Positions 5,303 to 63,900 of a DNA stretch of 64,000 bases are shown piece after piece. A program made the translations under genes and the position numbers. The DNA is from Chiloscyllium plagiosum. Taxonomy: Eukaryota. Below the pieces are notes generated by a model. That model searched no databases and was not told the origin of the DNA. It saw nothing but the letters and a program-made list of their open reading frames with translations. The stretch covers positions 44,625,921-44,689,920 of the forward strand of contig NC_057719.1 of the NCBI RefSeq assembly GCF_004010195.1, given 5' to 3'. The first letter of the stretch is position 1, and every line of letters begins with the position of its first letter.

Positions 5303-7723
5303 ATATGCAATATTTTACAACTGTAGTATTTTTTTATATATGAACGTGAATGTTGACAGCAACAAGTTAAGGGAGAATACTCCTTTCCTGTTAAAAGTGG
5401 AAGTGTAAGAATACTTCAATTTCGCAGAATTTTGTCAAGCAGAATCCAATGTGTTGGGAATGCAAACTTCCCATTGGGAACTGTTTGAATGAGTTGGATC
5501 GGAGCATCAGTTTTTGGATCTGCATCTTGTTATTTGGTAATTTGTTCATGTCATTTTGATTAGTGTGTGTAATCTTATGATAGATACTGCAATAAATCAA
5601 GATAAATGTGACTGTATTTTCATTAACAAAACATATCAATTGCTCTCTGATTTCTTCACACCAGAAATATTGCATGTGTTTAGCAATATACATTCAAATA
5701 AACTCCAGTTAAATTTTGTTGCTTTACAAAGTTTAAAATTCTAATACCAGTTGTTTTGTGAATCTAGAAGCAAGCAAAAAGAAAGCTCTACTTACATGCC
5801 ACTTTCCATGGCCAAAACATATGAAATAATTTGGCATTTAATGATTCTGTATGTAAGTTACAAAAAATGTTGCCTTTTCTCCAATTTGAAATATGTTTCC
5901 AGTTAGTGAATATCACCCCATGACTCGGTATTATCAGTACATTGATTATAGTCCACCCCATAAAACAAATTCAGTCATATCTATTAAACAGTATTTATTA
6001 TTTTAAAATGTTATATATAAATTATTTATACATAAATTATTCTAAGAAGTTATCTTTATACACAATTTCAATTCAAATTAACAGATGTTTGAATTGAACA
6101 ATTGAATGAAGTGCACTGTCTGAGTTGATTTGAACTCTGAGTAGGTGATCAATGGGGCAATTGTGAAACGCACTCACAAATGTAAAGTTGAAGATGGCAT
6201 CCTGGTTTTGATTCACAATGTTTATCAGTTGCTCACTTGAAACAGGCAGAAATCCAAGTTGGTTGATAAGCAGCAGAAGAGAATGTTTGGGCAGGCAATG
6301 TTTGACACTAAGGGGGAAGGCAAGGTGCAGGACAGGGAATTTAAAAGGCTGCATAGGGTCCATAGGAGGGCCCAGTGTCTACTGTTGCTACTTAATTTGG
6401 ACTCACAAAGGAACATTTTTCACATGTCTTGGAGGGCTTCTGTTCTATGTGGCATCTACTTCAGTGGATGTAACTTGCCAGTTCTTGTCCCAGTTAAATA
6501 AGCTACTTTTAGTGCAGTTAGAACCCAGTTTTTAATAAGTTCACGAGGCTTCTGGACTAAGTGGGTACAGAACCCTACAGGTTAAAATCAACAACATCTG
6601 GGAAGAGTTAAATTTTGAGTGAATCACTAGTCCTTTCAATATAAACTGCCTACAACTCATGGTTTCTGCCAGGTGGACGGTGTTAGAATTAACTCCTCTG
6701 TTTCAATGCATGTTCATGCTAATTTCGTGAGCCATTTTACAATTCAGAAGTTAACAAAGTCATCAGGCAACTATACAAAGTAAAATTAGAAGGGAACAGA
6801 TATTCATGTTGTATTCCAAATTAGATAATAAAAGGCATCCTGATAGAAATTACAACCAGGTTGTGCAATAAATGGGAAAAAAATTAGATCAGAAGTGTCC
6901 ATGCATCTGTTAACCTTCAATTCCTATAGATATCATATAGTTACTGTTTGATTCCACATACTCCTAAATACAATAAATGATAGCTTTGTGTAATAATCTT
7001 CCCAATTTTCCATCCATCCATACTGCAATTGTCAGCTTAGCATCTTGTTGTCTTGTGGGACATAAGTTCTAACTTCCGTCTTTTGTGCTAGACCACTATT
7101 AATTATATTAATGTATATTAATTTCCTTTTGGAAATAAGTTCCCAAATGAATAGAATATTGGGTTACATGTGTTTAGAATTAAATTCAGCATAGGAGGAT
7201 ACCAACTGGCTTTCTACACAATGAAGCAGATTAGGAAGGAGACAGTGGAAGTATAAATTTTAATTTTACAAATATATTTGGAAACAGGGATAATACCAAA
7301 AGACTATAAATTCAACAAAATGGAAATAAATAAGTCGAGACTATAACCAGTTGATTTTATCTTGGCTGTGGATAAAAGTTGAGTCTATAAAACAAGTAAA
7401 AGTTAGTAAGCATTAAGAACAAAATGGGGATAGATTGTGGATTGTAAAAAGCTGCCCATAGTTGACTGAATTATTAGAGCATTGGAGATAATAAGTGCAG
7501 TCTCGATAGAAGTGAAGGAAATTGATTTCATCCCTAATATCTGCTTTGGTGACATCCCATTGTAACAAGAGGAAGATTGGGATTTCTGTTATGCAAAAGG
7601 CTAATTTAGTCTACAAGGAAGATGGGAAGTATGTCAGAGAATTAACCAATATTTAAAAGGATGGATGATTAGCTAAGTTCAACTGTTATTGAAGCATTGC
7701 TCATGTGACTATTGGAATGGGGG

Positions 7724-8109
7724 AAAATGAGGACTGCAGATCAGAGTCAAAACGTGTGGCGCTGGAAAAGCACAGCAGTTCAGACAGCATCTGAGGAGCA
7801 GGAGAATTGACGTTTCAGACATAAGCCCTTCATCAGGAATGGCAGGGGGAGCCCAAGGAGGCTCAGAGATAAATGGGAGGGTTGTGGAGATGGGGTGATG
7901 TTAGCTTGGAAGGCGAAAGGTAGATGAAGGTGCAGCGTGATGGTGATAGGTCAGATCGGAGGTTAGAGCAGATAGATGGGAAGGAAGATGGACAGGTAGG
8001 ACAGTTCAAGAGGGCGGTACCAAGTTGAAGGGTTGGATCTGGGATAAGTTGAGGGAGGGGAGATGAGGAAATTGGTGAAATTGACATTGATGCCGTGTGG
8101 TTGGAGTGT
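7724..8109 (-). mobile_element. Penelope-like element 3' end (GIY-YIG C-terminus plus 3' UTR with hammerhead motif)
   Basis: Minus strand encodes TLQPHGINVNFTNFL (the TLxPxGxN end of PLE endonucleases), then a pyrimidine-rich UTR and CTGATGA-agggcttatgtct-GAAACGTC. Confidence 0.72.
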
Positions 8110-8149
8110 TTGTTGCTTGTTGGCTGTCAAAGGTTTGTAGATGGAGAAG

Positions 8150-13022: not shown

Positions 13023-13340
13023 ATCGAATTGAATTGAATTGAATTTATTGTCACATGTACCCAGATACAGTGAAAAGCTTTGTCTTGTGAACAATACAGG
13101 CAGATCACATAGTTAATAGCATAGATAAGTAAATAGTAGGTAAACAGTGGCAAACACCAAACACAGGTACAGGTGAATGTTAAGAGTTTGTGAGTCCATT
13201 CAGTATTCTAACAATCCCTGATTGTGGCCCATGGATCAGGAAACTGAGGATCCAGTTGCAGAGAATGGGGCTTAGTCCAAGATCAATAAGATTAGTAATC
13301 AGTCTCGAGGTGATAATAGTGTTGAAGGCTGAACTGTAGT
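13023..13340 (-). mobile_element. Rex1/Babar LINE, 3' part with internal deletion
   Basis: (CAATT)n tail with AATAAA on the minus strand. 13216-13340 reads [35 protein letters not shown]. Confidence 0.8.
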
Positions 13341-15320: not shown

Positions 15321-15533
15321 TGAGTATGATTCTTACATATCTGTTCTTGGTGTCAAGATGTTTTAGGGAGGAGTGAAGGGCAAGTGATATGGCATCTGAT
15401 GTGGCTCTGTTTGTCGAATAGGCAAATTGGAGTGGGTCAAGAGGAGTGGGGAGGCTGGAGCTGATTAATGCCTTGACCAGCCTTTCAAAGCACTTCATGA
15501 CCACTGAAGTTAGGGCTACTGGGTGGTAGTCAT
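15321..15533 (-). mobile_element. Rex1/Babar LINE RT fragment, 5' part
   Basis: [20 protein letters not shown]...LDPLQFAY...DAISLALH...YVRIIL, which continues into DYSSAFNT at 13340. Confidence 0.88.
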
Positions 15534-16029: not shown

Positions 16030-16490
16030 CGTTGTGGTTCTGTTCACCGAGCTGGGAATTTGTGTTGCAGACGTTTCGTCCCCTGTCTAGGTGACATCCT
16101 CAGTGCTTGGGAGCCTCCTGTGAAGTGCTTCTGTGATCTTTCCTCTGGCATTTGTAGTGGTTTGAATCTGCCGCTTCCGGTTGTCAGGTCCAGCTGTCCC
16201 CTGCAGTGGTCAGTATATTGGGTCCAGGTCGATGTGCTTATTGATTGAATCTGTGGATGAGTGCCATGCCTCTAGGAATTCCCTGGCTGTTCTCTGTTTG
16301 GCTTGTCCTATAATAGTAGTGTTGTCCCAGTCGAATTCATGTTGCTTGTCATCTGCGTGTGTGGCTACTCAGGATGGCTGGTCATGTCGTTTCGTGGCTA
16401 GTTGGTGTTCATGGATGCGGATCATTAGCTGTCTTCCTGTTTGTCCTATGTAGTGTTTTGTGCAGTCCTTTCATGGGATTTTGTACACTA
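16030..16490 (-). mobile_element. Penelope-like element: GIY-YIG endonuclease plus 3' end
   Basis: Minus strand reads VYKIP*KDCTKHYIGQTGRQLMIRIHEH...HEFDWDNTTIIGQ...REFLEAWHS...SINKH. Confidence 0.9.
16067..16106 (-). ncRNA. Minimal type-I hammerhead ribozyme motif in the PLE 3' end
   Basis: gca-CUGAGGA-u-gucaccu(agac)aggggac-GAAA-CGUC-ugc: 3-bp stem I, stem II, palindromic ACGU stem III, GUC site. Activity untested. Confidence 0.65.
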
Positions 16491-16494
16491 TTTG

Positions 16495-16850: not shown

Positions 16851-16950
16851 GAGCTGAAAATGTGTTGCTGGAAAAGCGCAGCAGGTCAGGCAGCATCCAA
16901 GGAGCAAAAGAATCGAAGTTTCGGGCATAGGTCCTTCTTCAGGATTCCTG
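16851..16950 (-). mobile_element. Short Penelope-derived unit with decayed hammerhead motif
   Basis: Same family as 57646-57870; ends just past the CTGAAGA core. Confidence 0.8.
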
Positions 16951-17524
16951 GGCATAAATACCTCAATGTATGTGGAGTTCAGGAAAAAGAGAGAAACATA
17001 TGCAGAGTTAGATAGGAGCTTAACATGCATCGATTTGAATGTTAGTAATATGCTGAGAAGCCTGTGGTGTAGACTGTGGTGTATTAGGCAATAAAGTTCA
17101 TGGAATAGTCTTCCAATAATGAAACAAAAAATTAGAGTCTGGTATATCTCTCAGTACTATATATTGTTGTATTCAGTCTTAATATATAATAAGAAGTCTT
17201 CTGAAGATACCCAAGCCTGAAGGCAATTCTTGACCTTATTTCTTCTTGGCCAGTCTGTCACGAACCTAAACTAATGCTACAGCAGATTTGCTATAATAAC
17301 CTTTGCAGAGTCAAATATTCCACAATGGATTTTAATGTTTTGAATGGACGAAGTGAAAAAAAAACAATTACTGCAATTTCTACTTATGGAAAAACCTTTA
17401 AAAGCTCTACTTACAACAATATGATTAAGTCACTGTATGGTTTGTTTTGTCATGATATCAAACAGAATAATGAAATTAATTAAATCTCAGTATTCCCTGT
17501 GCTACTAAACGGTACAGTCAACAT

Positions 17525-18570: not shown

Positions 18571-18600
18571 AGCACTCTGTACTGCAAACCAACTGTCCAG

Positions 18601-18853
18601 GAGAAGGTGAGGGCTGCAGGTGCTGGAGAGACAGAGTTGAAAGTGTGGTACTGGAAAAGCACAGCAGGTCAAGCAGCATCTGAGGAGCAGGAGAGTCAAC
18701 ATTTCGGGTACAAGCCCTTCATCAGGAATCTGATGAAGGGCTTATGTTACATTGAATTCCTGATGAAGGGCTTTTGTCTGAAAAGTCAACTCTCCTGCTC
18801 CTCGAATGCTGCCTGATTTGCTGTGCTTTACCAGTGCCACACTTTTCAACTCA
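18601..18853. mobile_element. Fold-back Penelope-derived element with hammerhead motifs
   Basis: Inverted arms; 15-bp TSD aaac(c/t)aactgtccag at 18586-18600 and 18854-18868. Confidence 0.85.
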
Positions 18854-19197
18854 AAACTAACTGTCCAGCCAACTGATCTAACCAATCCGTTTGTGAATTG
18901 TGTACAACGTGAAAATAGCTGGGGCCCATAACCATTTCTGAATTTAATTTGTGAGAATTTTTGTTTCTTAGACGGGCCTAAGCTCATCCTGAATGCTAAC
19001 ATTCATATTGTCGTATTGTGTACTGATAATTATATCGATTTGCAATCAGGATTGCAAAATGTTACATTGAATTTTACTTTCCTCTTTTCTATTTTAATAA
19101 CTTAATTTTGCATCGCTAAGTGTATTTTATAATACAATGGGCTAGGTTTTACACTGAGATATAGGCCTCTGGCTTTGGATGACAGCTAGGTTTGAGC

Positions 19198-22814: not shown

Positions 22815-25800
22815 TAGTCAGGCAGAGGGTAATTGATACCCTGTATTGACAACAGGAACTGGGAGGAGTGACAGCGAGGACCCGGCGCCTGCCAGGAAGG
22901 TAAATTTAAATTATATAAACTTACCTCGTGTACAGACAGAGCACACGCTGAGCAGGAGTGAACATGAAACTGTTGAGTAAGTGAGGTAATATATTTGGGT
23001 GGTTGCTTTACCCAAAACACTAGAGTCATAGAGATGTACAGCATGGAAACAGACCGTTCAGTCCAACCTGTCCATGCCGACAAGATATCCCAACCTAATC
23101 TAGTCCCACCTGCCAGCACCCGGCCCATATCCCTCCAAACCCTTCCTATTCATATACCCATCTAAATGCCTTTTAAATGTTGCAATTGTACCAGCCTCCA
23201 CCACTTCCTCTAGCAGCTCATTCTATACCTGTGCCACCCTCTGTGTGAAAAAGTTGCCCCTTAGGTCTCTTTTATGTCTTTCCCCTCTCAACTTAAACCT
23301 ACGCTACTTGGATAGTGTCTCCTATCTGTCCTCCTCCTCTAACCAAATCAAAAGGTTTTGTGCGCCAGATTGGTAAAGTAATTAGTTCTTAAATTTTATT
23401 TAATGGTCTCTTTGGAAATTTAGAATAGTGTGAATGGAGGTTAGAGCAGTTGAATGTTCCTCCTGCAGAATGTGAGAGGTAAGGGTCACCACTACTGCCC
23501 CTGTTGACTTCCTCTGCAGGAAGTGCACCCAACTGCAGCTCCTCGGAAACCGTGTTAGGGAACTGGAGCTGGATGAACTTTGGATCATTCGGGAGGTGGA
23601 CGGGATTATTGAGAAGAGTTACAGGGAGGTAGTCACACCTCAGGTACAAGGAAAAGGTAGATGGGTTCTTGTCAGGGGATGGAAAGGAAACCGGCAGACA
23701 GTGCAGGGATCCCCTGTGGCCATTTCCCTCAGTAACAAGTATACCGTTTTGGATACCATTGGGGGGACCACTTACCAGAGGTAAGCCATGGGGTACAGCT
23801 CTCTGGCAGTGTCTGTCCCTGTTGCTCAGAAGGGAAGGTGGAGTGGAGCAGAGCATTAGTCATTGGGGACTCCGTAGTTAGGGGGACAGACAGGAGGTTC
23901 TGTGGGAACGAGAGAGACTCATGGTTGGGTGTATTACCTCCCAGGTGCCAGGGCTCATGATGTCTTGGGTGATCCTTAAGGGGAGGGGGAGCAACCCCAC
24001 GTCATGGTCCACATAGGCAATAATGACATAGGTAGGAAAAGGGATGGGGATTTAAGGCAGAAATTCGGGAAGCTAGCGTGAAAGCTTAGTGCTAGAACAG
24101 AGTTATTATATCTGGTTTGCTGCCCATGCCATGTGCTAGTGAGGTGAGGAATGGGGAGAGAGAGAAGAGTTGAATATGTGGCTACAGGGATGGTGCAGGA
24201 GGGAGGTATTCAGATACCTGGATAATTGGGCCTCATTCTGGGGTAGGTGGGATCTCTACAAACACCTGAACCAGAGGGGTACCAATATCCTGGGGTGGTC
24301 GGGGGTGTTGGAATTTACTAATGCTCTTCACGAGAGTTTAAACTAATTCATCAGGGGGATGGGAAACTAAATTGAAGTTCTAGCATCCAGGTGGTTGAGA
24401 GTAGTGAGGTCAGAAATAAGGTTTCAAGGTCGCAAGAGTACACCCACAGCCATGAAGATGGTTTGAAATGTGTCTACTTCAATGCCTGGAACATCCAGAA
24501 TAAAGTGCTCGCAGCATGGGTTGGCACCTGGGACTTGGATGTTATGGCCATTTCAGAGACATGGATAGAGCAGGAACAGGGTTGTTATAGGTTCCAGGGT
24601 TTAGATATTTAAGTAAGAATAGGGAAGGTGATAAAAGAGAGAGGTATGTGGCATTGTTAGTCAAGGACAGTATTACAGTGGCAGAAAGGACATTTGACGA
24701 CTCGTCTACTGAGGTAGTATGGGCTGAGGTTAGAACCAGGAAAGGAGATGTCACCCTGTTGGGAGTTTTCTATAGGTCTCCAAGTAGTTCCAGAGGAAAG
24801 GGTAGCAAAGATGATTCTGGATAGGAGCGAGAGTAGTTGTTATGGGGGACTTCAACTTTCCAAATATTGACTGAAAATGCTATAATGTGAGGACTTTAGA
24901 TGGGTCAGTTTTTGTCCAATGTGTGCAGGAGTGACGCAGTATGTAGACAGGCCAACAAGGGGTGAGGCCACATTTCATTTGGTTCTGGGTAATGAACCCA
25001 GGCCAGGTATTAGATTTACAGGTAAGCGAGCACGTTGGTGATAGTGACCACAATTCGGTTATGTTTACTTTAGTGATGGAAAGGGATAGGTATATACTGC
25101 AGGGCAAGTGTTATAGCTGTGGGAAAGGCAATTATGATGCAATTATGCAAGATTTAGAATGAGCTGGATGGGGAAGGAAACTGCAGGAGGTGGGCACAAC
25201 TGAAATGTGGAGCTTATTCAAGGAACAGCTACTGCGTGTCCTTGATAAGTATGTTTCTGTCAGGCAGGGAGGAAGTGGTCAAGCGAGGGAGCCATGGTTT
25301 ACTACAAAAGTTGAATCTCTTGTCAAAAGGAAGAAGGAGGCTTATGTAAGGATGAGATGTGAAGGCTCAGTTAGGGTGCTTGAGAGTTATGAGTTAGCCA
25401 GGAAAGACCTAAAGAGAGAGCTAAGAAGAACCAGGAGGAGACACGAGAAGTCGCTGGCAGGTGGGATCAAGGAAAACCCTAAAGCTTTCTATAGGCATAT
25501 CAGGAATAAAAGAATGACTAGATTAAGATTAGGGCCAATCAAGGACAGTTGTGGGAAATTGTGCGTGGTGTATGAGGAGATAAGAGAGGCACTAAATGGA
25601 ACTTTTTGTCAGTATTCACACTGGAAAAAGACAATGCTGTTGAGGAGAATACTGAGATACAGGCTACAGGATTGAGGTTCACAAGGAGGAGATGTTAGCA
25701 ATTCTGGGAAGTGTGAAAATAGCTAAGTCCCCTGGGCTGGCTGGGATTTATCATAGGATTCTCTGGGAAGGCAGGGAGGCAATTGCAGAGCCTTTGGCTT

Positions 25801-29394: not shown

Positions 29395-29456
29395 TTCATT
29401 CCCCTGTCAAATTACTGATCTAAATGTCCTGGTATTGTTTCAGTGACTGGACTATT

Positions 29457-29556
29457 CTGGAGAAGAGTCATACTGGACAAGAAATGTCAACTCTGTTTCT
29501 TTCGCCACACATGCTTACAGGCCTGCTGAGTTTCTTCAGAATTCTGTGTGTTTGTT
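29457..29556 (+). mobile_element. Older Penelope-derived short repeat (decayed hammerhead region)
   Basis: ctggagaagagtcatactggacaagaaatgtcaactctgtttct...cctgctgagtttc. Relatives at 42893-42992, 50467-50640 and 55051-55183. Confidence 0.6.
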
Positions 29557-29594
29557 ATAGGGAAGGCCTACTCCCTGAGCCTTGTTTAATTCAG

Positions 29595-29814
29595 AGCTGG
29601 AAATGTGTTGCTGGAAAAGCGCAGCAGGTCAGGCAGCATCTAGGGAACAGGAGAATCGACGTTTCAGGCATTAGCCCTTCTTCAGGAACCTGAAGAAGGG
29701 CTAATGCCCGAAACGTTGAATCTCCTGTTCCCTAGATGCTGCCTGACCTGCTGCGCTTTTCCAGCAACACATTTCCAACTCTGATCTCCAGCATCTGCAG
29801 ACCTCACTTTCTCC
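29595..29814. mobile_element. Fold-back Penelope-derived element with hammerhead motifs
   Basis: About 95-bp inverted arms around aa (29687-29688); perfect 15-bp TSD ccttgtttaattcag at 29580-29594 and 29815-29829. Confidence 0.9.
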
Positions 29815-30374
29815 CCTTGTTTAATTCAGGTTGTTGAATTGATCTGGTGGCATGTCTGAATACAACATATAATAAATCATACAAATATGAAAATCTGTTT
29901 ATATTTTAAAGTACTTTGTAAATATGTTACTAGTTTCTAGGCTAACAAGGTCATTACTGATCTGAGCCGTGACACCTTATGGACCTTTGCTTGGAAGTAG
30001 TAGATGCATAGGTTGAGGGTCTTGAGGTGGCTAATGTTGGAGCACAGGTCATTCTGCTGTATCAGGATGACAGGTTTGGACACACACAATCTGCCGCTCA
30101 GCAACAGATGCACCGTTGTTAGGTTCATTGCAGGGAATGGGTTTGATGAGGAATGTCAAGAGTTTCTGAACTGCAGAGAACATCATGTGAAGCCGTTTCT
30201 GGTCACTGTGATTTCATTCAAACTCTCCACAATTTCTAGTGATGGAAAACACATTGAACTCCCATGGCAGGAGATCATGGCCCAGAAGTAAAGAGAAAGC
30301 TTCAGAAAGTTAGGGAACAAGAGGATTTCGGGAATCCTTGACAATGAATGTCAAAAAGCTGGAACCCTAGTTCA

Positions 30375-32824: not shown

Positions 32825-32895
32825 TGCACTTTTGCAGTCATACTCAAAATCTTAATGGCTGTATATGCACTTTTTTGTGCAAAACACTGCAATGT

Positions 32896-34096
32896 CTACA
32901 GGAGTAGTGCCAGAAGATTGGAGGCTAGCAAATGTGGTTCCCTTGTTCAAGAAGGGGAGTAGGGATAACCCTAGTAACTATAGGCCGGTGAGTCTCACTT
33001 CTGTTGTGGGCAAAATCTTAGAGAGAATTGTAAGGGATAGGATTTATGAACATCTGGATAGGAATAATGTGATCAAGGATAGTCAGCATGGTTTTGTGAA
33101 GGGCAGGTCGTGCCTCACAAACCTTATTGAATTCTTTGAAAAGGTGACGAAGGAGGTTGATGAGGGGAAAGCGGTAGATGTGGTATATATGGATTTTAGT
33201 AAGGCGTTTGATAAAGTTCCCCATGGTAGACTACTGCAAAAAAATACGGAGGTATGGCATTGAGGATGAGTTGGAGGTTTGGATTAGGAATTGGCTGGAT
33301 GGAAGAAGACAGAGGGTAGTAGTTGATGGCAAAGTTTCTTCATGGAGTGCCGTCACTAGCGGTGTTCCGCAAGGATCTGTTTTGGGACCATTGCTGTTTG
33401 TCATTTTTATAAATGACCTGGAAGAGGGGTTAGAAGGTTGGGTGAGCAAGTTTGCGGATGACACAAAAGTCGGAGGAGTTGTTGACAGTGAGGAAGCATG
33501 TGGCAGGTTACAGCAGGATATAGAGAAGCTGCAGAGCTGGGCAGAAAGGTGGCAAATGGAATTCAATCTATCCCAGTAACCTGGCTTTCTTCATTGCCTT
33601 CCTATAGACTTCAGAACCTAGAAGCCTTCTTATAACAGTAAATGTCTTCCATCACTATAACGTTCCATATCTCTGTTAGTATATACAATACTCTCCTCCC
33701 TGAAACACCCCCTGTCTGTGCCTCTCAGACTGCCTGCCTCTCCCTACATCCATCCCTATTCCTGTCTCCAGAATCTAATCCAGCTCCCTCTATCTCTGTA
33801 AATTCCTCCAATCCCCACGTATGGAGTCAGCTATTACAAGGGGGCATAGCTTTAAATTAAGGGGGGTAGGTATAGGACAGATGTTAGGGGTAGGTTCTTT
33901 ACTCAGCGAGTCGTGAGTTCATGGAATGCCCTGCCAGTAGCAGTGGTGGACTCTCCCTCATTATGGGCATTTAAGTGGGCATTGGATAGGCATATGGAGG
34001 ATAGTGGGCTAGTGTAGGTTAGGTGGGCTTGGATCGGCGCAACATCGAGGGCCGAAGGGCCTGTACTGCGCTGTATTCTTCTATGTTCTATGTTCT
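32896..34096 (+). mobile_element. Young 5'-truncated CR1 with a foreign internal segment
   Basis: Well-preserved RT (NYRPVSLTSVVGK, YMDFSKAFDKVPH, GVPQGSVLGP, FADDTK) to 33566. 3' end at 33821-34096 with (TTCTATG)n. aatgt on both flanks. Confidence 0.92.
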
Positions 34097-37114: not shown

Positions 37115-38867
37115 CAAAACCTCATAACAAAGAAATGAGAAACAGTACTTAAAGAAAACCTCATAATCAAAGGAAGAGATACTCAGAGGCCTATCCTTTC
37201 ATTGTCAAGTTTGAACACCATCCCTGATGCTCCTGGCACTGTGATGAAAATAAATAATAAAACAAAAACAGATGTTTGGGCTTCTTTTGGTTCCAAAATT
37301 TGTTGTTACTCAGCCAACTTAGCACGAAAACCACAACCCTTTTACCACTCAAATCCACCGTTAACATCACAGTCAGATCACAATGCTATAATTGAAGTCC
37401 GATCTGAATATCTAAATGAAGACCATGCCCAATTTCTAATGGGTACCAGCTCAGAAATGCCTGCTCTTACCTGCTCAGAAGTGCAGGTTAATGCTAGAGG
37501 CTGGGGAATGGAGATTGGTGAGTGCTTCCCACTGACAATTCAAAATGTGTAGATTGACTATTTTCTGCCAAACAGGCAGAATTAAAACCATTCTTCCTGT
37601 TTTGTATATTTCATCACAAGAGGAATCGCTTCATGACCTGTAAACTTATATACTAGTTTAATACTAACTGGATTTTGTGGTCAGTGGCAAACAAGAGCAT
37701 TTGACACTGACATCAAAGAAAGCTGCCTACCGAGATCTACTGATGGATCTGGGATCTGAAGTAAGGTTTTCCCCTTTCCTGGTGCCAAGTCAAAGTGATG
37801 GCAGTAGATGGCTAGGCAACCAAACACACTGAAGTATTCACATGAAGAACAATTTATGAAACTAAAATCTCATAAAAGCTTTTTATTTAAATTTAAAATT
37901 TCAATAAGCAAAATAAATGATGTAATTTGATTCAAATGGAAGCTATAAGCATCCTTTTAAAATATATTTTAAAAATTTATGTTTCACCATTATGGAAAAG
38001 TTTGACATTTCACAAATATAAAATTAGCTTTACAGGGCTAATGTGCATCTTTATGAAGTTAGTATAAAATTAAACACTAAGTCACACTTCATTCAACAAG
38101 GCGTAATCTTTTCCATGGATTTTTATAGAGAGGCAAACAATGCAAAAGTGGAAATTTTCATGAGTTCGCTGATTGCTTGAATATTGCATGGAGATCTCAA
38201 CAGTACACCCTCTGGAGAGGCACAGAATCAGTAACAGCTGTCTCCAGCTTTCTGACATCCTGTGCATGTGCATGCTGCAGATGTTGTGGTCAGTTTCAGT
38301 GAAGTAATGATGGCAAGTGCTGACAGCTTCACCATCATTACCACAGCAAAATCAGAGCCAGTGTTGCCTTGAAAACCAGACAACTGTGAGATTAATTATC
38401 AATGCTACCTGTCCAGTTTATCCTTGGGAAGACTAAGGAGCTTTTGTCCAAATTGTTAGTCATTTTCCCCATAACTAACTTCTTTCTGGTAAATCATTAA
38501 TGTTAACATAGGTACGCCTTTATTCATTTTTTTGACTGGTTCAATTTGTTCTGAATACTGCAAATCCAGGTCTGAAGTTAAATATAATACTTGTCTTTGT
38601 TCCTCTTGTGGCGAGGTTACCTGGTGGGAAATGTTTAAGAACTTGCCAGTGCTGTATTCTATTAAAATAGTTCAAATGGCCTCTTTTGTTTTTCATATTT
38701 GAAGAAGAAACCAAAATGCTTCGAATGGGCATTCTCACCTGCCTAATGTAGCATGTTAAGATCATAATACATCAAAGATGATGGGGAAGATGATGGGGTA
38801 GATGCAGGTGAGTCCCATGGATATTGCCTATCCAGTTTTCACCAGGTAGGCAATGTTAAAAATTTGT

Positions 38868-39068
38868 TGCTGGAGAAGCGCAGCAGGTCAGGCAGCATCT
38901 AGGGAACAGGAGAATCGATGTTTCGGGCATTAGCCCTTCTTCAGGAATAAGGGCTAATGCCCGAAACGTCGATTCTCCTGTTCCCTAGATGCTGCCTGAC
39001 CTGCTGCGCTTCTCCAGCAACACATTTCCGTCTCTGATCTCCAGCATCTGCAGACCTCATTTTCTCTT
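38868..39068. mobile_element. Fold-back Penelope-derived element with hammerhead motif
   Basis: Inverted arms; perfect 17-bp TSD caatgttaaaaatttgt at 38851-38867 and 39069-39085. Confidence 0.9.
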
Positions 39069-39459
39069 CAATGTTAAAAATTTGTCCTATTATTTCTTAA
39101 ATTATGTTCATTGTTTTTATTCTAAAAGAAATGACAAACAATGAAGTTTTGGAAGATTTGGAAAGATTTACCACATGAAATATCCTTCATTCAATGTCAG
39201 CCTGGATATTGTGGCATACAAGCCACAGTGGAATCTAATTCTACCCTCACAACTGCAGGAGACTTGCCTTCACAGCATCTGACAAAGCTGAGAAGGTTGT
39301 TTTCTGCTGGTTCCTGATCAATCTGGCAAGCTAATCCGCCTTTACCCAACAATTCTGCAAACCATGCTGAGGCAAATTGCATATTATTTTGTAATATTGT
39401 TATATGGCTGTAAATCTAGCTGAACCCATTCTATTGTCTAAGACTGTAAAACCGTGTGT

Positions 39460-41745: not shown

Positions 41746-43134
41746 TTCGCATGTCTGATATTATTCACATTGGACTCCATTTTGGCATCATTTTTTAATT
41801 GTTTTGCTTAATGCCTACAGGATGTCCAATAAGAGGTATACAGAATACACAGGTCATGACATCAATCAATGTTTAGCATTGATGTGAAGCCAATACTGGC
41901 AACTATCACCAATAGATGAAGACATGTTCAGCTACAACAAAGATCCCTCATTAACATTATTTAAAGTGATATTCAACTACTGAAATATTGCAGCCTGAGT
42001 GATTTTTCCTGGTGCTTGCAGCATTAATGTTGAGCATCAATTCATGCACGGTTTGAGTGTAGTGTGTTGAAAATTCCATTGGATACTTTGTCTATCTGAG
42101 GCTTCTATAACACATACATCAGCAAAGAAAGTTGAATAGGAAGGATTGATAGTAAAGGATCTATTTTTAAAAGCTTGGTAGTAGTGATGCTAAATATTTT
42201 TGGCTGAATCTACTGTTTCTTCCCTAGAACTTCACAACAGCAGTGAGGATGGTGAAAAATATAAAATAGGTCAATAAGAAATTTGTGAAGGTATTTCACA
42301 TTGAGGTTGTGTTAGAGGTACACATAAGAGACACTCCATTTTAGGATAGCAACAGGAAAGCCTGCAGTGTATACTGAAACAGACACAGAAACAGACAAAT
42401 ACACACAGATCTTACCAAAATATCTATACTATCAGAAAAAAACGTCATTAACAATTTCAGGAACGTTTCATTCCTGTGTTGTTGATGGTATGTTATTGTC
42501 CATGGTCAATTGACCACCTTTCAGTGAACATTTGGATCTGCTACCTGTATTTCCAGTAACTGTGACAATTTGAAAGTACAATTGCAGATTTTGCAATCAC
42601 AGATGACAAACAAGGCCTTATTATGTAAGTGAAGAATTGCAAGATTTTTTTGCAGCACTTCCATCGAAGTAAAATTACACTGACTCAGATTGTTAGTGTT
42701 TTTTATTGCTATTGCATGCCCCCCAAAATACAAAAAACAAAGCAGTTGTCTTCCAATGCACTAAGGAAGGAGGAAATGAATTTACTAACACTGTATTTGA
42801 TTAGGCAATTCACAAAAACTACAACTTTGGTGATGTTGAACATGTCAAATAGGGATTCAAAACATTCATAATCAAAGGTTGTCACACTAGGTCTGAAGCC
42901 AGTCACTCAACTCAAAAAGTTCATTCTGCTTTCTCTCCACAGATACTAAAAAGAGACCTGCTGAGTTTCACCAGCAATTTCTGTTTTTGTGTGTCACTCT
43001 AACTGAAAGCACTCAACAAAAGCCAGGAGTTAGACAGGCCATTGTTACTTTCAGACTTCAGAGTTACTGAATTTGAGGTGTCAACAGTAACTACCATACT
43101 TCAAATTTGACACTTGTGATCAATGGTCATTGTC

Positions 43135-43237
43135 GAGACCGTGGTGCTGGAAAAGCACAGTAGGTCAGGCAGCATCCGAGGAGCACGAAAATCGACGTTT
43201 TGGTCATAAATCCTTCACCAGGAAAGGCCAACAAAGC
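43135..43237 (-). mobile_element. Short Penelope-derived unit
   Basis: Family match; tcattgtc at 43127-43134 and 43238-43245. Confidence 0.75.
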
Positions 43238-46342: not shown

Positions 46343-46948
46343 TAATCTGAGGCACAATCCGTGATGTGTCACAACTAGTAAATGCAGGACTTCTGCTGAT
46401 ACCAGAGTAGTGATTCTCACCTGTTATTTCACTGTTGAAGTGCACAACATTAACCCTATTTCAATTCCTCCTTCCCAAGCTCCTAATGAAAGGATTAAAA
46501 AGATTTTGAAATGTAGCTGTTTGTGCCTCTTTTTTATTCTCTTTGCACTACCTTCACCTACAGGTGAGAAAAGAACAATGATTTCCCCACTCGGGTCTGT
46601 TATACGTGCACTCAGGGCCTGATTAAATATGTTGATTCAGTTTGAAGATGTCAAAAACAGCACTGCCAGCTGCTGTTGTAGGGAGCTGGGAAGTGGAAGA
46701 TGTTGGGGAGTTGGCAGCATGCACAGAGCCATCTCATGGCTGATTCTAGCTGTTCACCTAACCAGCTCCATTGACTAAAATTATCCCTTAAATTGCCGTT
46801 GTAGTCTTATCATTGATCTTGATGTTAAATCTGTCACCTTTTCCAAAAATATCGCCTACCTCCTGAACATTTGCAGTTTTTCTGTCATGTGACCTTGACA
46901 TCCACCAGCTGTGTCATTCAGAATGCAGAATTCAGATGTTGACTGGAT

Positions 46949-47084
46949 GAAAGTGAGGACTGCAGATGCTGGAGATCAGAGTCAAGATTAGAGTGGTGCT
47001 AGGAAAGCTCAGCAGGTCAGGCAGCATCTGTGGATCAGGAAAACCGACGTTTCGGGCAGGAGCCCTTCATCAGCCCTTCATCAG
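46949..47084 (-). mobile_element. Short Penelope-derived unit with hammerhead motif
   Basis: Reverse complement CTGATGA-agggctcctgccc-GAAACGTC; the terminal cccttcatcag is duplicated. Confidence 0.82.
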
Positions 47085-50035: not shown

Positions 50036-51512
50036 GTTGAGACTCTACTTGCCAATGAGCCGGCCAGCTTTGGAATGCCAGTGCTTGTCAGGGTGTGCAG
50101 TGGCCTTGTCAAGATGGTGCAGCTGCAAGGGATGCCAGTCTTTGGGCAGATATCTACTGAGTGATGGGCTCTTACTGGGATGGTGCAAGGTGGGGCAAAA
50201 ATTGAGTGTGCAAGAAGTCGTAGAGGTGTGATTGTTGATTACTGTGGTGAGTTTCATAAAATGGACTGAGAAATCTTGCTAGGCGCTGTGGCAAAAAAAC
50301 TCCTCCAAATGCAACTTGGTCTTAGGCAAACAAAACATAAGATTCAGGGTTAAATGAAATTGGGAATAGTGAATATGGAAGTGAAACTTTATTGTACTTC
50401 AGTTTGGGATTTTTCAGGTGAAAGTAATTATGTATAACATAAAATACGCACAATGTTATATTTTATAAAAGCAAAACATTGTGCATGCTGTCAAACTAAA
50501 ATAAAAAAAAGCAGAACGTGCTGGAGAAAGTCAAAACATTCTGAAACGGAATCTTATTGGATTCAAAACGTTAATTCTGTTTTTCTTTCCACAGGTGCTG
50601 GCAGAACCGCTGAGTTTGTCTAGCACCGTCTGTTTCACTGTTTTATTTTCAAATTGATTTCAATTAATCGAACAGCTGGCAAAGACGTTTGCCACCAATG
50701 GAGAAGTTGAGGGGGGAGCGGGGGAAGGATGGTGGAGGAGTCCAGAAGTTAGCTGTTTGCAATTTCACGATATGTTTGTTCCCAGTTGAAATGCGGAATG
50801 GAATCTGTGTCTTTTTAATCCCTTAATTCAGCTTTCACCTTGTTAATCCTTTACACCTCTGTCGACTATAATTTTGTATTTGTTATTGCTACAAAAGCCA
50901 CTGTTCTGTAATAACTTAGAATTCAAATCTCTATCGTGGTCAAAGAGGTTTCCATTCTAAAGTGCTTAACCTAAACAGACTGTGGTTGATAAGATACAGG
51001 TCAGGGAATGTTTTGCAGGTCTGGTTTGTTCCAGTTACATGGGTATACATTGTATCTGGTTAACTGTTTATTTTGATCTGGTTTATAGGTAATGTTAGAA
51101 TGGATCTGCTGCCACCCATTAAGAACTTCAAAGATAGAGGTTAACTCCAACATTTGGTGATAAAGTAAATCATTGTTGGCTGAGGAAAGGCACTTTCACT
51201 ACAACAAGATGTGTTTATTTCATTGATCTGTATTCATTGAATGTAATCATTTACAGTGCCAGAGCGACTTAAGTCTTGTACATCTGACACTTGTACAGTT
51301 CCCAAAGCTTTAATATAATATTAGTGGCCTGTTTGGTCAGAGACATTGAATTGTATGTTTATTCATGCTTGGGTGCAGCCTTGCCAATGGACCATTTTCC
51401 ATCAACTAAACATAATAATATTTATGATATACAAAGTGTTTGCTTGATGATTTATCTTTGTGGTGATGATTTGGATGATGGTTTCTGAAAAGGTTATCAT
51501 TCACCTAGCTAC

Positions 51513-52970: not shown

Positions 52971-55900
52971 TACTTATAATTTGAGGGGAAATTATTTATT
53001 ATTGTTTTTAAATTGTACACATAGTCTACAGTTTAGCAACATTGCAGTCAAAGTTTTCATTTTGCATTTGTCAACCAACCCTTAAAGAGAACAACTACTT
53101 TACTGATTGAGTGGCAATTGAAAATAAAAAAATAAAAAAATAAGAAGAAAACGCAAGCATGTTCTACTAATAAAGATTTGTCAGTGGCTGTGCAATTCTC
53201 TATTGGAGAATTACTGAAGTTTAGTCAAAAACAGGTATTAAAAAATGAAATCTGAGACATATATTTATTGTTGACCATTTTGTTGGTCTAATTTTTTTGT
53301 GACTTTTCTTTTAATTCTCAGTTCATAAATATGCCTTAATTGGAAATCTGTCACAACTTTGTGTATCTACATGCTATTGTTTGTTCTTGTCACTTAGAAT
53401 AGATACAACTGTTTGCGTCTCCTTGGAAATAAGCAGCATAATACTTCACAAATTTGCAATGGTAATTGCATCAAAGACAGTGGATGTGATCCACAGGGAG
53501 CTTCCTGCGCCTTTTTTTTAATGTCTCTCTGATGGGAAATAACATTGTAACTAAAGCCAATTTATGTCTATTGTGGCATTTCCAGTTTTAAATTGATGAT
53601 AACCTAGCAAAATTATTTGAAGTCTCTAAAAATAACTTGTGACACATTTGTCTTGTGTTTAATCTACAAGATATACTGCAGCAACTCTCCAAGGATTTAT
53701 GAACAGCATGTCCCAAACCTGGAATCTCTATCATCAAGAGAGACAAGGACAGAGTGTCTATGGGAAGATCAGCCCCCACACTCCACCCCTCACCCCCGCC
53801 ATATCAAATTATCTGAGTCATACACAAAATTCTTTGGAAATGTATCACCATTCCTTTGTCAAAATGCCATCATAGCCCAACAGGAATGCGAGAGTAACTT
53901 CACTACCCGACTGAAAAGATCCAAGAAATCAGCTGACCAAGCATCATTTGACAGTTAGGGATGACAACTTTGTTAATGACACTATTGTCCCAAGAATGAA
54001 AAAAATATGTCTTTAAGATGAGTTGTGATTAAAAACAGCTCTAGGAACATTCTGTACTTGGTCAGGAAATCAGTAATGAATCAACAATGATTTCAGCCTG
54101 TGATTGCTTTCGCTTGTATCCATTGAGAAATTACTGTTGCTGCCTTTATTGAGAAAAAAAAATATTATAGCAGAATAAAGGAGCTATCAGAAACAGGTGG
54201 GGGGAAAACTGTAAAGCACAGTGAGAGAGCAGAACCTTTATAAATAGAGAAGAAATTACTGCAAGTGGAGACAGAATAGCGAAGCACTGTGGGAGAAAGC
54301 AGAGTTAGCGAGGGGGGTGGTTATGTTGAGAAAGGATGTCACAGGATTCAGAGACACATGAGTTGAATACACTGGAATGCTTTTAAATTTCATTATAACT
54401 TATTTAAATTTTACTATACAGTATTCTCTAAAGTAAAGTTATTATCAGTTAAGCTAAAAATAAATCCAACTTGACAGTTCAACGAATCAGTGTTCAATAA
54501 TTTAACCAGTCTAACGATAAAGTTAAAATTAATTTAATCTTAGGTTTGGGATCCTGCTCTTGAAATACTGCTTTCCTCAGAGAACTTGGTGCATTGGAAG
54601 TGACGTGGGAAGATAATGTTGTGGCCACTGGTGGAGACCTGGCTTCGAAAATGACATGACAGCAATAAAGAAATCAGAGGACTGATGGCAGTGTAATTGA
54701 GAAGAGTAATGCAGCACTGGAAAGAAGGGTGCTCCAGAGGGAACAATAAAAGGAATCTGTTTGATTAGAGCTAAGAAACAGTGGGTAAAGCATTGCGCTC
54801 AATAGACCACTAACTAATGGGAATGATATACCAGAACAAACTTGCAAGGAAATTATAGAGTTGCAAAAACTATTGAGTAGAGGTAATTGAGAAGGAAATA
54901 TTGCTGGATTTGATGTTATATTTATGAGGTTTATAAGATTTTTTGGACCTGTGCATGTAAATTTAGGGCAAATTAATAGGGTCAGGTAACATATTTTGAA
55001 GTCTGTCTGACAATAAGTCTAGGTGCTCGATTTTTGAAGATCCATCTCAGTCTTAATGGTAGGTCATCAACCTAAAGTATTAACTCTGTTTTTCTCCACA
55101 GATGCTGCATGACCTGCTGAGTTCTTTTCCCAGCATTTTGTGTTCTTGTTTCAGATTTCCAGCAGCTGTAGTAATTTTGTTTTGTACAGGAAAGGTGTGA
55201 ATTGTTTTATTGAGAAGAAGGTGCAAGATGTTTACACTTGGAGCCAATGATAGCAGACTCTGACCTTACAATGCAAGGACGGTGTTTCCAAAGTGCCAGA
55301 AAGATTCTGAGAACATCAAGTTGTAAACAGTTGTGCTTTGAACTGTCCAGTTACTCCTAAGATTAAAAGGAGTTTCTGGTGAAGAACTGCTAATTATTGT
55401 TTCTATCTAGATACAAGACGAATGTGCTTCATCTTGCCATAGGGATGAGAATGGAGGAAGCCATTTTTGAAATCAGTATATAGGCTTCCTTACAAATAAA
55501 TAAATATAGTGGATTGACAGCAGAGGTTCCATAAAGCTCAGCAGGGAGAAAAGGCTGCTTGACTTTGCGAGCTACCAGAGCTGGATGCAGGAGGGAAATG
55601 CTCTCTAGGCCAAGAGATCATTTTATGATCCAAACTGATATTAACATTGGACTAATCAGATTCCATATTGAAGCTCCAATTTACAGACACTAATTTTGCA
55701 TTTGTTTTAACTGTGGAGGTAAATTACTGAACACAGTTGCCCAGATCTGTGCTTTTCCATGGTCCAATTGAATGCACAGCAAATGCAGGAAAATAGACCA
55801 AAGACTTTCTAGGTTCTGCAAGGCTAGGTGCTACCATTTTCTCTCTGCTACATCACCCTCTAACTCTGCCATTGCACACAATCCTGAGCAACATTCATGA

Positions 55901-57113: not shown

Positions 57114-57645
57114 TGTATGAAAACATACAGTTCATCAAACATCTCAGCAACTGAAATGAAACTAAAGTCAACAACACCCAAAATGCAAAACATAAGTTAA
57201 GTTATACATTGCTCCTAACAATATATCCTGCCACCTTCTACAGGTTTCAGGCAATCTGTTCTGGTATAGCTAGGGGAAATGTCAAAACCTTTACTGCAAA
57301 TGATGGTGATTTTATGAAACTCTCCAAAAACTGAGCAAACTACCAGGAGACCATCATTTGAAGCTACTATTCAGTAAAAATGGGATATGGGATTCCATTG
57401 GTATCTGGGAACAGCTGTGAACTGTTTGCGAAAGGCACTGTACTTCCATGGAGAGTGTGATTGGTGATTTATACAAGAAGACTGTTCCAATCTCAAAGCT
57501 TACAGGTGGACATGGGTTCATAACATTGGTTATGGGTAATGAGGTAGGTCAAATGAAGCAAGTGTCAGTTTAAGGTTTAGATGACAGTGATCACAGTATC
57601 AAAGGCTTAATTTCACTGTGGAAAAGAATGAGGAACAATCCAAAG

Positions 57646-57870
57646 AAGAAAGTGAGGTCTGCAGATGCTGGAGATCAGAGCTGAAAATGTGTTGCTGGAA
57701 AAGCGCAGCAGGTCAGGCAGCATCCAGGGAACAGGAGAATCGACGTTTCGGGCATAAGCCCTTCTTCAGGAATGAGCCATTCCTGAAGAAGGGCTTATGC
57801 CCGAAACGTCGATTCTCCTGTTCCCTGGATGCTGCCTGACCTGCTGCGCTTTTCCAGCAACACATTTTCA
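57646..57870. mobile_element. Fold-back Penelope-derived element with perfect 94-bp arms
   Basis: 57681-57774 is the exact reverse complement of 57778-57871; TSD gaacaatccaaag at 57633-57645 and 57871-57883. Confidence 0.92.
57779..57814 (+). ncRNA. Minimal hammerhead ribozyme motif (mirrored on the minus strand at 57738-57773)
   Basis: auuc-CUGAAGA-a-GGGC(uuau)GCCC-GAAA-CGUC-gauu. Stem I is weak; activity untested. Confidence 0.55.
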
Positions 57871-58551
57871 GAACAATCCAAAGCAAAGTAAAAGGAATTG
57901 AAGGAACATCAATTTCAATGAGGTGAGAACAAAGAACATGGACTAGTAACAAAGATTGTCGAGCAAAACTTAGTTGAACAAAGGGCTGCCTTCGAAAAGG
58001 AAATTGTTTGGTACAGTCAAGGTACATTCACACAGCAAGAATAATAGGATACGCAAATTTGCAGTACTGTGGATGATGAAAGATCCAGAGGGTGAGATTA
58101 AAAGCAAAATGGGTGTATATGATGCAAATGTGAACAAACTCGTATGCAGAAAGGTCAAGGAGGAGGAAAAATGGAATGAGAAGCAAAAGCTGGTACTGGA
58201 GTAGACTGGCAGAAGAGTGTCCAAAAGACTTCTATAGACTTATGAATAGTGAAAAAAACAGGTATAGGGAGGAATAAAACTGATTAGAGACCAAAAACGG
58301 TATTTATGCATAGTGTCAAAGAGTGAGAGAGAGGCGGGAAGTCACAAGGTTAGGGAGTGGTGGAGAAATGGGGAGGTTGAATGATTTGGGCAGCTGATGA
58401 TGCAATAAACTGGAGGGTTGGAATATAGGAGATGTGGTGAGCTGGAGGGTCAGGTAATGGGAGAGATAGTGAGCCAGTCAGGTAATGGGTAAAGCAGTGA
58501 GGTAGGAGGCCAGGGAATGGGCGAGGTGTTGACCTGTAGGGTTGGTGAGTG

Positions 58552-58850
58552 GGAGAGATAGTGAACATGAATGTTTTGGGACTTGGAGAGATGGTGAACT
58601 GGATGTTTGGGGATTTGGAGAGATGATGAACTGGAAGTTTGGGGAGTTGGAGAGATAGTGAACTGGATGTTTGGGGAATTGGAGAGATGGTGAACTGGAT
58701 GTTTGGGGAATTGGAGAGATGGTGAACTGGATGTTTGGGGAATTGGAGAGATGGTGAACTGGATATTTGGGGAGTTAGAGAGATGGTGAACTGAAAGTTT
58801 GGGGAGTGGAAGAGACGGTGAACTGGATGTTTGGGGAGTGGGACAGGCAG
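58552..58850. repeat. 32-bp minisatellite, about 9 units, with degenerate flanks (about 58330-59070)
   Basis: Unit ggagagatggtgaactggatgtttggggaatt at 58585, 58617, 58649, 58681, 58713, 58745, 58777 and 58809. Confidence 0.92.
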
Positions 58851-60904: not shown

Positions 60905-63900
60905 TGACCAGCAGAGGATTGTGACAACATGGGTTGGCTTTTGGGATGAAGATTTGCATTCGTGCCACCAGAGGGAGGACCTCAGCAAGACGCCCTCTAA
61001 GCTTAGGTGAAGAGGAGCAACCAGCAGAGGACTGTGACAATGTGGATTGGCTGTCAGAGTGAAGATTTGTGTCAGTGCAGTCACCATTACCAGAAGAAGG
61101 ACCTCAGCAAGATGTCCTCTGAGCACTGAAGAACAGCTTGTTGTCAAGGAATGCTTAAGGTCATATACTGTAGTGGACTCTGACAAGGAGTAGGGAGATA
61201 TGAAAAATTTGTTGGTAGCAGAGTAAGAAGTAAGGCTGTGGCTTGAGAAGCTTTGCAGAACAGCAGCTCAGCAAAAAGTACAGGTAAGCTCAGGTAAAGT
61301 CATTTTAACTTCCCTTTTTAGTGTTAGAGTAGTTGCATGTTCCTCCTGCAGGATGTGGGCGCTCAGGGAGACTTCTATCATCCCTGATGACTACAGCTGT
61401 GGGAGGTACACCCAGCTACAGCTCCTGGGAGACTGTGTTTGGGAGCTGGATGCACTCAGGATCATCTGAGTTGCTGAGCGCTTCATAAATATAGTTTTAG
61501 TGTGGTGGTCACACCTAAGGTGTAGGCAGAGAGTAGCTGGGTGACCACCAGAAAAGGCATGAATCTCCGGTGGCCATTCCCCTCAAAAACAAGTATACCA
61601 TTTTGGATACTGTTGGAGGTGGTGACTGTTCAGAGGAAAGCAGCAGTAGCCAGTTTGGTGGCACTACGACTGGCTCTGGGCCACAGTGGGAATGGGTAAA
61701 GATAAACAGGACCTTAATGACAGGAGACTCAATAGTTAGGGGATAGATAGGAGATTCTATGGCCACAAATGGGAATCCAGGATGGTGTATTGCCTCCCAG
61801 GTGCCAGGGTCCAGGATATCTCCAGGTGGCTGCAGAATGTTCTTAAGGGGGAGAGGGAACAATGACTTGCAGTCATTGTGCACATTGACACAAATGACAT
61901 AGGGAGAAATAGGGATGAGGCCTGCCACTGTGATTATAGAGAGCTAGGAAAAATGTTAAAAACCAGGACCGTTGTTAGTGATTAATCTCTGGATTGCTTC
62001 CAGTACCATGTGCTAGTGAGGGTAAGGACAGGAGCATATGACAGACGAATGCATGGTTAAAGCATTGATTTAGGGGGCAAGAACTTATTTTTTTAGATCA
62101 TTGGGATCTTTTCTGGGGCAGAGGTGATCTGTTCAAGAGGGACGGGTTGCACCTGAACTGGAGGGGGACCAATAACTTGATGGTCAGATTTGCTAGTTCT
62201 GCAAGGGAGAGTTTAAACTAGATTGGCATGGGGGGTTGGGATTGTCAACAGCAGGGAGGCATGTACGAGGTTCAGGGGAGATCAGTGATCAAAAATAGTA
62301 AGTTGAAGAGACAGGTCAGGCTGGAACAGAACAGGGAGCAGGGAATGCCTGTTGGGTTAAATGCATTTATTTCAATGCAAGAGGGCTGACAGGTAAGGTT
62401 GATGAACTCAGGGTGTGGATAGGTACATGGGATGGGATATAATAATCATTATAGAAACATGGCTAAGGGAGGAATAGGACTGGCAGTTTAATGTGCAGGA
62501 TACAGGGGCTTTAGGTGGGACAGAGGTGGTGGAAGGAGGGGAGGGAGAGTTGCATTTTTGATTTAAGGTGAGTATCACAGCAATAGTCAGAGATGAAATA
62601 ACTGAAGGATCATCCAGTGAGGCTTTGTTGGTGAAGCTAAGTAGTAAGAAGGGGATAGTGATGTTATTAGGGTTGTACTATAGGCCCCCAAATCATCAAT
62701 GGAAATAGAGGAACAAATATGGAGGGTGATTGGGGAGACTTGCAGAAACAATAGGATTGTCATAGGGGATTTTAATTTTCCTAACATAGACTGGCACTGC
62801 CAGAGTGTTAGGGCTTAGATGGAGTGGAATTTGTTAAGTACATTCAGGAATGTTTCCTCAAGCACATATAGAGGGCCCTACTCAGGAAGGGGCAAAACTT
62901 GACTTACTTTTGGGAATTAGGGCAGGACAGGTGACAGAGGTGACGTTGAGGGACCACTTTGGGACCAATGATCATAGTTCTATTAATTTTAAAATAGTTA
63001 TGGAGAGGGACAAAACTGGTCAACAGGTTCAAGTTCTAAATTGGGGCAAGGTGAATTTTGATGGAATTAGACAAGAGCTTGCAGGGCTGAATTGGAATAG
63101 TTTGTTTGTAGGGAAAGGGACCTTTGGCAAATGGGAGGCCTTTAAAAGTGAGATAACTAGAGTTCAGGATCTATATGTTCCTGTGACGGTGAAGGCCAAG
63201 GTTGGCAGGAATAGGGAACCCTGGACGACAAAAGATATTGAGGCTTTGGCCAGAAAGAAGGCAGGGGCGTGGCTCAGGTACAGGCAGCTGGGATCACGGG
63301 AATACCTGCAGGTATACAGGGATACAGGAGTTTACTGAAGAAAGAAATCAGAAGGACGAAAAGAGGGCACGAGATAGCCTTGGCTGAGAAGGTTAGGCAA
63401 ATCCAAAGAGGTACTTTAAGTATACTAAAGGAAAAAGAATAACTAGTGAAAGAATAGGACCCCTCCAGGAACAAAATGGACATGTATGTGTAGAACCGTA
63501 TGTGAGTGTTTACCATTAGAGAAAGACATGAAGAGTTGGGAACTTAGGGAAGTTAATGGTGATATTTTGGGGATAGTCGATGTCACAATAAAGGAAGTGT
63601 TGGATGTATTTGTACGAAGGTTGATAAATCTCCTGGACCTGACCAGATATAAAATACAAATACTACAAGAGGCTAGAGAGGAAATTACAGGGACCCTGGC
63701 TGATATTTTTCAATCATTATTAGCCACTGGTGAGGTCCCAGAAGACTGGAAGGTAGCAAATGTTGTGCCCTTATTTAAGAAGGGCTGCAAAGAAAAACCT
63801 GGGAACTATAGACCAGTAAGCCTGGGTAATTTATTTGAGAAGATTCTGAGGGATATGATACACATACATTTGGAAAGACAGGGTTTGATTAGGAGTAGTC

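Follow-up and report, generated by a model that had tools for sequence, protein, structure and literature searches.

The insert at 57646–57870 of the analysed window, a stretch of 64,000 nucleotides from Chiloscyllium plagiosum (organism A below), is a true, lineage-specific insertion that was accompanied by a 13-bp duplication of the target site. Its 225 bases comprise a repeat end with a hammerhead motif, in two copies placed head to head; this repeat end very probably comes from a Penelope-like element (PLE). The layout is already known for PLEs and is present here in its shortest form, and the variant part is that the copies lack an ORF and share a fixed 5' end. The favoured reading of its origin, to which a probability of about 0.5 is given as a whole, is that both target strands primed reverse transcription, that the cDNAs ran off at a fixed RNA 5' end, and that they were end-joined at the centre. 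Positions within the repeat unit are counted from the core C of the hammerhead.

Results

Structure and reality of the insertion

A sequence-only reading of the window had described perfect 94-bp inverted arms with a 3-nt loop, a one-sided extension of about 35 nt and a 13-bp target site duplication (TSD), and all of these features were reproduced at 57633–57883 (Table 1). Positions 57681–57774 and 57778–57871 are complementary at 94 of 94 positions (the first TSD base included) with 3 nt between them, and the TSD copies beginning at 57633 and 57871 are identical at 13/13 positions, for which the chance is about 2e-8 per placement.

Reads of two DNA runs of organism A (X2 and X5) and of one run of organism B, a related species (X9), were compared with 57400–58200. 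A single 1195-nt contig of X9 joins 57400–57632 straight to 57871–58200 with retention of one TSD copy, and its flanks differ from the window at 18 of 563 letters. Contigs of X2 run across both flank-element junctions, left and right, and enter arms of opposite orientation, although they include no more than 27 and 23 element letters, which is below the threshold of 31 letters. In X5, the left contig stops at 57633, and 57886–57912 is without coverage. None of the contigs listed spans the 3-nt centre. The alternative that this palindrome is an assembly artefact was not borne out as far as tested, in view of the X9 empty site and the X2 junction contigs in the raw data.

Table 1. Features of the insert and further copies of the unit in the window
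Feature	Position	Strand	Basis or remarks
Left TSD copy, 13 bp, GAACAATCCAAAG	57633..57645	+	Single copy at the X9 empty site
Long arm, 131 nt, ribozyme sense on -	57646..57776	-	5' end at -7, 3' end at +123 from core C
Tail, 35 nt, restricted to the long arm	57646..57680	-	Loose ends with unrelated flanks at 57647 and 57678-57684; PMC11167929
Minimal type I hammerhead motif, long arm	57738..57773	-	Sequence, descriptor, folding
Long-arm motif: helix I 5' strand; core (core C 57769); stem II	57773-57770; 57769-57763; 57761-57750	-	Sequence
Long-arm motif: GAAACGUC; predicted cut after 57742	57749-57742	-	Sequence
Inversion junction	57775..57777	.	Base 57777 matches the parent sequence of neither arm
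Short arm, 93 nt, tail-less version of the long-arm unit	57778..57870	+	5' end at -5, 3' end at +87
Second minimal hammerhead motif, short arm	57779..57814	+	Core C 57783; predicted cut after 57810
Right TSD copy, 13 bp, GAACAATCCAAAG	57871..57883	+	Matches left copy 13/13
Longer single copy, sibling subfamily	7720..8111	-	81% identical to the 57646 arm; 5' boundary by eye
Single short arm, small rearranged pieces at 5' junction	16851..16960	-	Sequence
Older palindromic copy	18586..18868	.	TSD 15 bp, 1 mismatch (18586/18854); extra 17-nt sense piece centrally
Palindromic copy	29580..29829	.	TSD 15 bp (29580/29815); 2-nt centre 29687-29688
Palindromic copy	38851..39085	.	TSD 17 bp (38851/39069); asymmetric 10-nt centre
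Single short arm	43141..43223	-	BLAST, end comparison
Single long arm, 11-nt core duplication at 5' end	46946..47084	-	BLAST, sequence

The hammerhead motif

As had been claimed, a hammerhead motif is present on each strand of the 57633 copy, and it is intact both ways. The motif pattern matches 11 times in the window compared with an expectation of 0.02. Both arms show the features of minimal type I hammerheads (PMC4209133), i.e., a CUGANGA + GAAA core, an extra base after A9, G10.1-C11.1, a palindromic 15.2–16.2 and an NUH site. A hammerhead search, the check proposed together with the sequence-only reading, succeeded with a structure descriptor (five matches in the window versus none in 100 shuffles) but not with the Rfam hammerhead models, which gave no match at gathering score in the window and none among the 17 weak matches at 57600–57920. 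These models seem to expect a helix III, which is absent from minimal forms. The matches to Rfam microRNA models were below gathering score and were discarded as being due to the perfect hairpin only.

Helix I has 3/4 pairs at 57646–57870, and in folding its pairing probability is at most 0.01 in a single arm. For stem II the probability is 0.96–1.0 in a single arm but 0.0 in the palindrome hairpin, which is predicted to fold at about -207 kcal/mol. A read-through transcript would, as stated earlier, hold one sense ribozyme inside a hairpin, but with stem II unpaired the ribozyme is predicted to be locked and the RNA to be double-stranded. The inserted copies are thus likely to be inert by-products and, because each strand carries one of the two motifs, they do not provide the kind of dimer that a minimal hammerhead needs. 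The palindromic copies are probably also inert as host features, though hairpins of such length and perfection might be a source of double-stranded RNA.

Among 10 distinct arms, none of the seven pairs of helices I and II changes on both sides, and 324 of 500 shuffles pair equally well; such a lack of covariation is expected of decaying copies. By eye, the stems of an older copy at 50538 differ yet still pair.

Other copies in the window

BLAST with the long arm revealed 12 arms at eight loci in the 64-kb window, plus one older relative. Four of the loci are palindromes, three are single arms and one is a longer single copy (7720–8111), so that the description of the unit as routinely integrating as a palindrome goes too far. 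The same architecture had been reported at 18601, 29595 and 38868 with TSDs of 15–17 bp; these are indeed real palindromes, but the motif is intact on both strands only at the 57633 copy. The + arm at 38949 is devoid of the CUGA half, both 29595 arms carry a substitution, and the 18601 copy has decayed. The copies at 29595 and 38868 have subfamily variants in common.

Older diverged relatives are located at 50495–50650, 29455–29540, 42890–42980 and 55050–55160. The first of these (the copy at 50538) repeats the build of the younger insertions: its arm begins at helix I and is joined on the 5' side to a stub of some 44 nt in inverted orientation, for which none of 1000 shuffles was as good. Candidate inverted stubs at three other old copies were equalled by 495, 129 and 2 of 500 shuffles, and two of them were rejected, while that at 42892 is borderline. 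Pattern scans in viral, metagenome and prokaryote collections yielded no loci.

A conserved ATG, 46 nt past the core C (57721–57723 on the - strand, and equivalents), opens a frame of 23–27 codons to the 3' end in all six long arms, and is preceded in five of the six by a pyrimidine tract ending in AG. By analogy with other PLEs it could be the ORF start of the parent, short open frames being common by chance. Used as a protein query (26–40 residues, a length that makes for a weak search), the frame had no match.

Arm ends

The 5' ends of 11 of the 12 window arms fall between -7 and +6, mostly at -4, where helix I begins, and the remaining arm reads through. This clustering holds for long and short arms, though their starts are about 35 nt apart. 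Memoryless truncation would produce it with a probability of at most 1.7e-12, a value for a range (-7 to +6) that was chosen after the data had been seen and for boundaries that were set by eye. The 3' ends form two groups, at +116 to +127 (long arms, 6/12) and at +76 to +93 (short arms, 6/12). Short 3' ends also exist without a long partner (16851, 43141), which identifies them as primed ends. Genome-wide, too, loose ends that pass into unrelated AT-rich sequence gather at the places of these two groups, namely, at 57647 in at least 398, 292 and 493 contigs of the three DNA runs, and at 57678–57684 in at least 79–191 contigs per place.

The fixed 5' end just before the ribozyme may mark the position where the element RNA begins. 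The bases from -6 to 0 weakly fit an initiator consensus. In Penelope of D. virilis, transcription starts 46 bp ahead of an intron of 75 bp (PMC2377424), the end of which maps to helix I (PMC2377424, PMC4209133), and thus upstream of the ribozyme and not at it. This counts against an RNA start at the boundary, since the shark unit, with its start at -4, would deviate from that arrangement. Two other origins of the boundary were considered and rejected: a splice acceptor does not fit because, going upstream into the continuation, the first AG is met only after about 26 nt (by eye), and cleavage by the ribozyme is ruled out because the inserts span the cut site.

Joints between arms

The view that the inversion is made at insertion is supported by the four palindromes in the window, which have four different centres, and by at least 829 different joints in the three DNA runs. 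In 12 of the 15 best-supported joints, one arm ends at -4 to +6, short of the possible extent of the alignment, and the ends of the partner arms are scattered from +26 to +102, falling in the tail or at its border in three of the 15. For ten of these 15 joints the letters between the arms are not known, and their far ends are not visible. Seven of the 15 are missing from organism B. The joints 57667–57782 and 57763–57844 have a depth of 180–480 in both runs of organism A (flanks 4–19), and are not found in organism B; some junctions thus reach 20 to 60 times the depth of the flanks in one species only. Such asymmetric joints of high depth possibly represent multiplied ready-made units or insertions within a host repeat. 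Together with the absence from organism B, the high depth means that some ready-made junctions may have multiplied as units, which counts against the favoured reading. The arms of young palindromes have private variants in common (94/94, 70/71 and 88/92); these would also be explained by fold-back copying or by later conversion, which likewise argues against the priming of two strands.

A longer parent

At 57776, at least 114, 122 and 122 contigs of the three DNA runs depart from the arm and continue in a common upstream sequence (agreement 0.47–0.56), the first 19 or so letters of which are alike in all three. Twelve bases beyond a common GGAAT follows an 11-mer that matches the 7720–8111 copy at 10 of 11 positions at equal offset, and then a shared 8-mer (by eye). 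That copy extends about 270 nt upstream, through a pyrimidine-rich spacer, to a short candidate ORF end at 8020–8118. Its 14–20 residues at about 8050–8111 presumably resemble the end of a PLE endonuclease; protein searches with this ORF end, which are weak at query lengths of 26–40 residues, gave no match. Judged by these sequences, the insert unit is the 3' end (the pseudo-LTR part) of a longer element.

The sequence-only reading is partly upheld. Its assignment to a Penelope-type element is supported by the combination of inverted end, one-sided tail, TSD and minimal hammerhead. Its non-autonomous family of about 130 nt is unproven, since the arm continues upstream in all three DNA runs and the sibling at 7720–8111 is longer. 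No RT or endonuclease ORF is tied to the family, so that the mobilising protein is a postulated one, and this counts against the favoured reading.

The window also contains, at 16030–16491 (- strand), a 3' fragment of a second PLE family. Over 134 residues, its endonuclease end shares 86% identity with a bamboo shark protein that bears an RT; the fragment has its own, different minimal hammerhead at 16103, and the ORF stop lies inside stem II of that ribozyme. Another fragment in the window has protein matches under the name Chiloscyllium punctatum, with 92–100% identity for the best five of 13 hits, which indicates that the DNA is from a bamboo shark. Many broken RT/endonuclease frames at 2596–4081, 13299–15352, 25163–25675, 32856–33579 and 62838–63338 look like CR1-type LINE fragments. 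A 32-nt tandem array of 9.4 copies occupies 58542–58843, and 9814–9955 is a gap of 142 N.

Discussion

The first two steps of the proposed pathway are visible in the insert itself, namely, the entry into a formerly empty site, of which 13 bp were duplicated, and the use of two favoured 3' termini about 35 nt apart, which would correspond to the two internal RT start sites described for PLEs. The GIY-YIG endonuclease of the element would cut both strands, 13–17 bp apart, and each 3'-OH would prime on uncleaved element RNA, at the tail start and at the inner start. It is probable that both strands of such a staggered cut prime reverse transcription. The arms stop by the 5' edge of helix I, at -7 to +6, independent of the start that was used. 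This stop would result from run-off at the RNA 5' end, the likely start of a pseudo-LTR transcript, and would yield strong-stop-like products; that the boundary is such a fixed RNA 5' end is plausible, but the odds are slightly below even. The two cDNA ends would finally be end-joined with the loss or addition of a few bases, creating a new centre each time.

A bolder version, which is a long shot, holds that the main role of the minimal hammerhead is the pairing of two element RNAs via its self-complementary ACGU, that a dimeric Penelope protein thereby brings along two templates and primes both target strands simultaneously, and that transcription begins at the first base of helix I. If two templates were used, each strong-stop product of about 130 nt would keep the promoter, the dimer signal and the RT starts and could seed further rounds, and sharks would hold tens of thousands of two-template products, enough to settle how the inverted ends of PLEs are built.

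Both strands might be primed on a long parent transcript, with RT being arrested just past the hammerhead by a ribozyme dimer, a bound protein or the pyrimidine-rich spacer, and the fixed end would then be a truncation hot spot. The parent does continue upstream in all three DNA runs, one of the 12 arms reads through, and small pieces of the core have been copied anew at the junctions at 16943, 18730 and 47074, as if RT had paused and restarted. However, helix I is already unwound when RT reaches -4, and its 3/4 pairs, with a probability of at most 0.01 in a single arm, make the ribozyme itself a poor roadblock there; arrest is thus unlikely as the cause, though it retains a real share of the probability. 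It is unlikely, too, that the unit is a non-autonomous mini-element that propagates from short masters with their own internal promoter and RT starts, some perhaps as ready-made inverted units. The unit also exists in a longer form, the four palindromes have four different centres, and no 5' end in the window has carried-over flank. Nevertheless, several observations point in this direction, including the fixed 5' and 3' ends, the density of eight loci in 64 kb, the 64,000–73,000 matching contigs per DNA run, the variants shared by the 29595 and 38868 copies, and the high-depth joints confined to organism A; in rotifers, pLTR sequences alone were enough to move a host gene (PMC3846280).

Priming on two strands would be dispensable if one strand folded on itself and the second arm were copied from the first. 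Such self-priming has been proposed for rotifer PLEs (PMC3846280), and the arms of the 38868 palindrome are 99% alike compared with 93–96% to other copies, the arms at 57646 likewise being closest to each other. On the other hand, centres of 2 and 3 nt leave no priming stem (the 2-nt centre at 29687–29688 appears too tight for fold-back priming), short ends also occur alone, the partner in some joints, the far ends of which are not visible, lies in the tail that is normally missing from the other arm, and both strands were extended in vitro (PMC11167929). Fold-back copying is therefore quite improbable. Long inverted repeats around a short centre would also be expected of a MITE-like DNA transposon or of an artefact, but either is extremely improbable: the TSD has no fixed length (13/15/15/17), the tail is one-sided, single arms and a longer parent exist, and the empty site and both junctions are present in contigs of the raw data.

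The formation of inverted PLE ends and the role of weak hammerheads are open questions (PMC8557442, PMC11167929, PMC4209133). The ORF-less products are short enough to be read whole and very numerous, so that a table of their junctions could separate two-strand priming from fold-back, and the fixed 5' end offers a precise site for testing an RNA start against an RT stop.

Comparison with known systems

No report on these shark elements or on a 5' end fixed at helix I was found in the literature covered, outside of which lay most subscription journals, Repbase, Dfam and supplements. A typical PLE insertion consists of an inverted, 5'-truncated copy with a tail of 30–40 bp at one end (PMC8557442), and rotifer PLEs have inverted pLTRs that are flanked by TSDs and form palindromic junctions (PMC3846280). 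Head-to-head ends, the one-sided 30–40 bp tail, the TSD, a hammerhead in the terminal repeat and variable junctions are shared between EN+ PLE insertions (PMC3846280, PMC8557442) and the shark copies; in the latter, the inverted end is found at four of eight loci, the tail is 35 nt long and the TSD is single at the empty site. They differ in that the four palindromes have no ORF body between the ends, in the length of the TSDs (13–17 bp versus 8–10 bp in rotifers; PMC3846280), and in the 5' ends, which cluster at helix I and are not scattered.

The core, the extra base after A9, G10.1-C11.1, the loopless palindromic 15.2–16.2 and the short helix I are common to the minimal hammerheads of metazoan PLEs, which have no activity as monomers and low activity as dimers (PMC4209133). 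Pairs of motifs on opposite strands are already known from Schistosoma, about 100–700 bp apart compared with 13 nt here, and stem II has 7–8 bp in the Schistosoma families compared with 4 bp in the shark unit (PMC4209133).

Animal non-LTR retrozymes (bioRxiv 10.64898/2026.07.22.740005) are likewise non-coding, bear hammerheads and stem from PLE terminal repeats, and they are present in the single cartilaginous fish that was sampled there. They are head-to-tail tandems of at least two units, whereas in the shark all eight loci are either single or inverted head to head, and the 18 TRF rows include no tandem repetition of the unit, which sets these copies apart from retrozymes as defined.

In PAc, the Poseidon element of Anolis carolinensis (PMC11167929), two RT start sites define the tail, as is proposed here, and the distance from the outer RT start to stem II is 111–118 nt in vitro compared with 116 nt in the 57646 arm. 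The shark inserts span the cut site, so that uncleaved RNA was copied, as in PAc. The accessible text on PAc describes neither ORF-less fold-back products nor a fixed cDNA end, and the hammerhead of PAc differs from that of the shark family.
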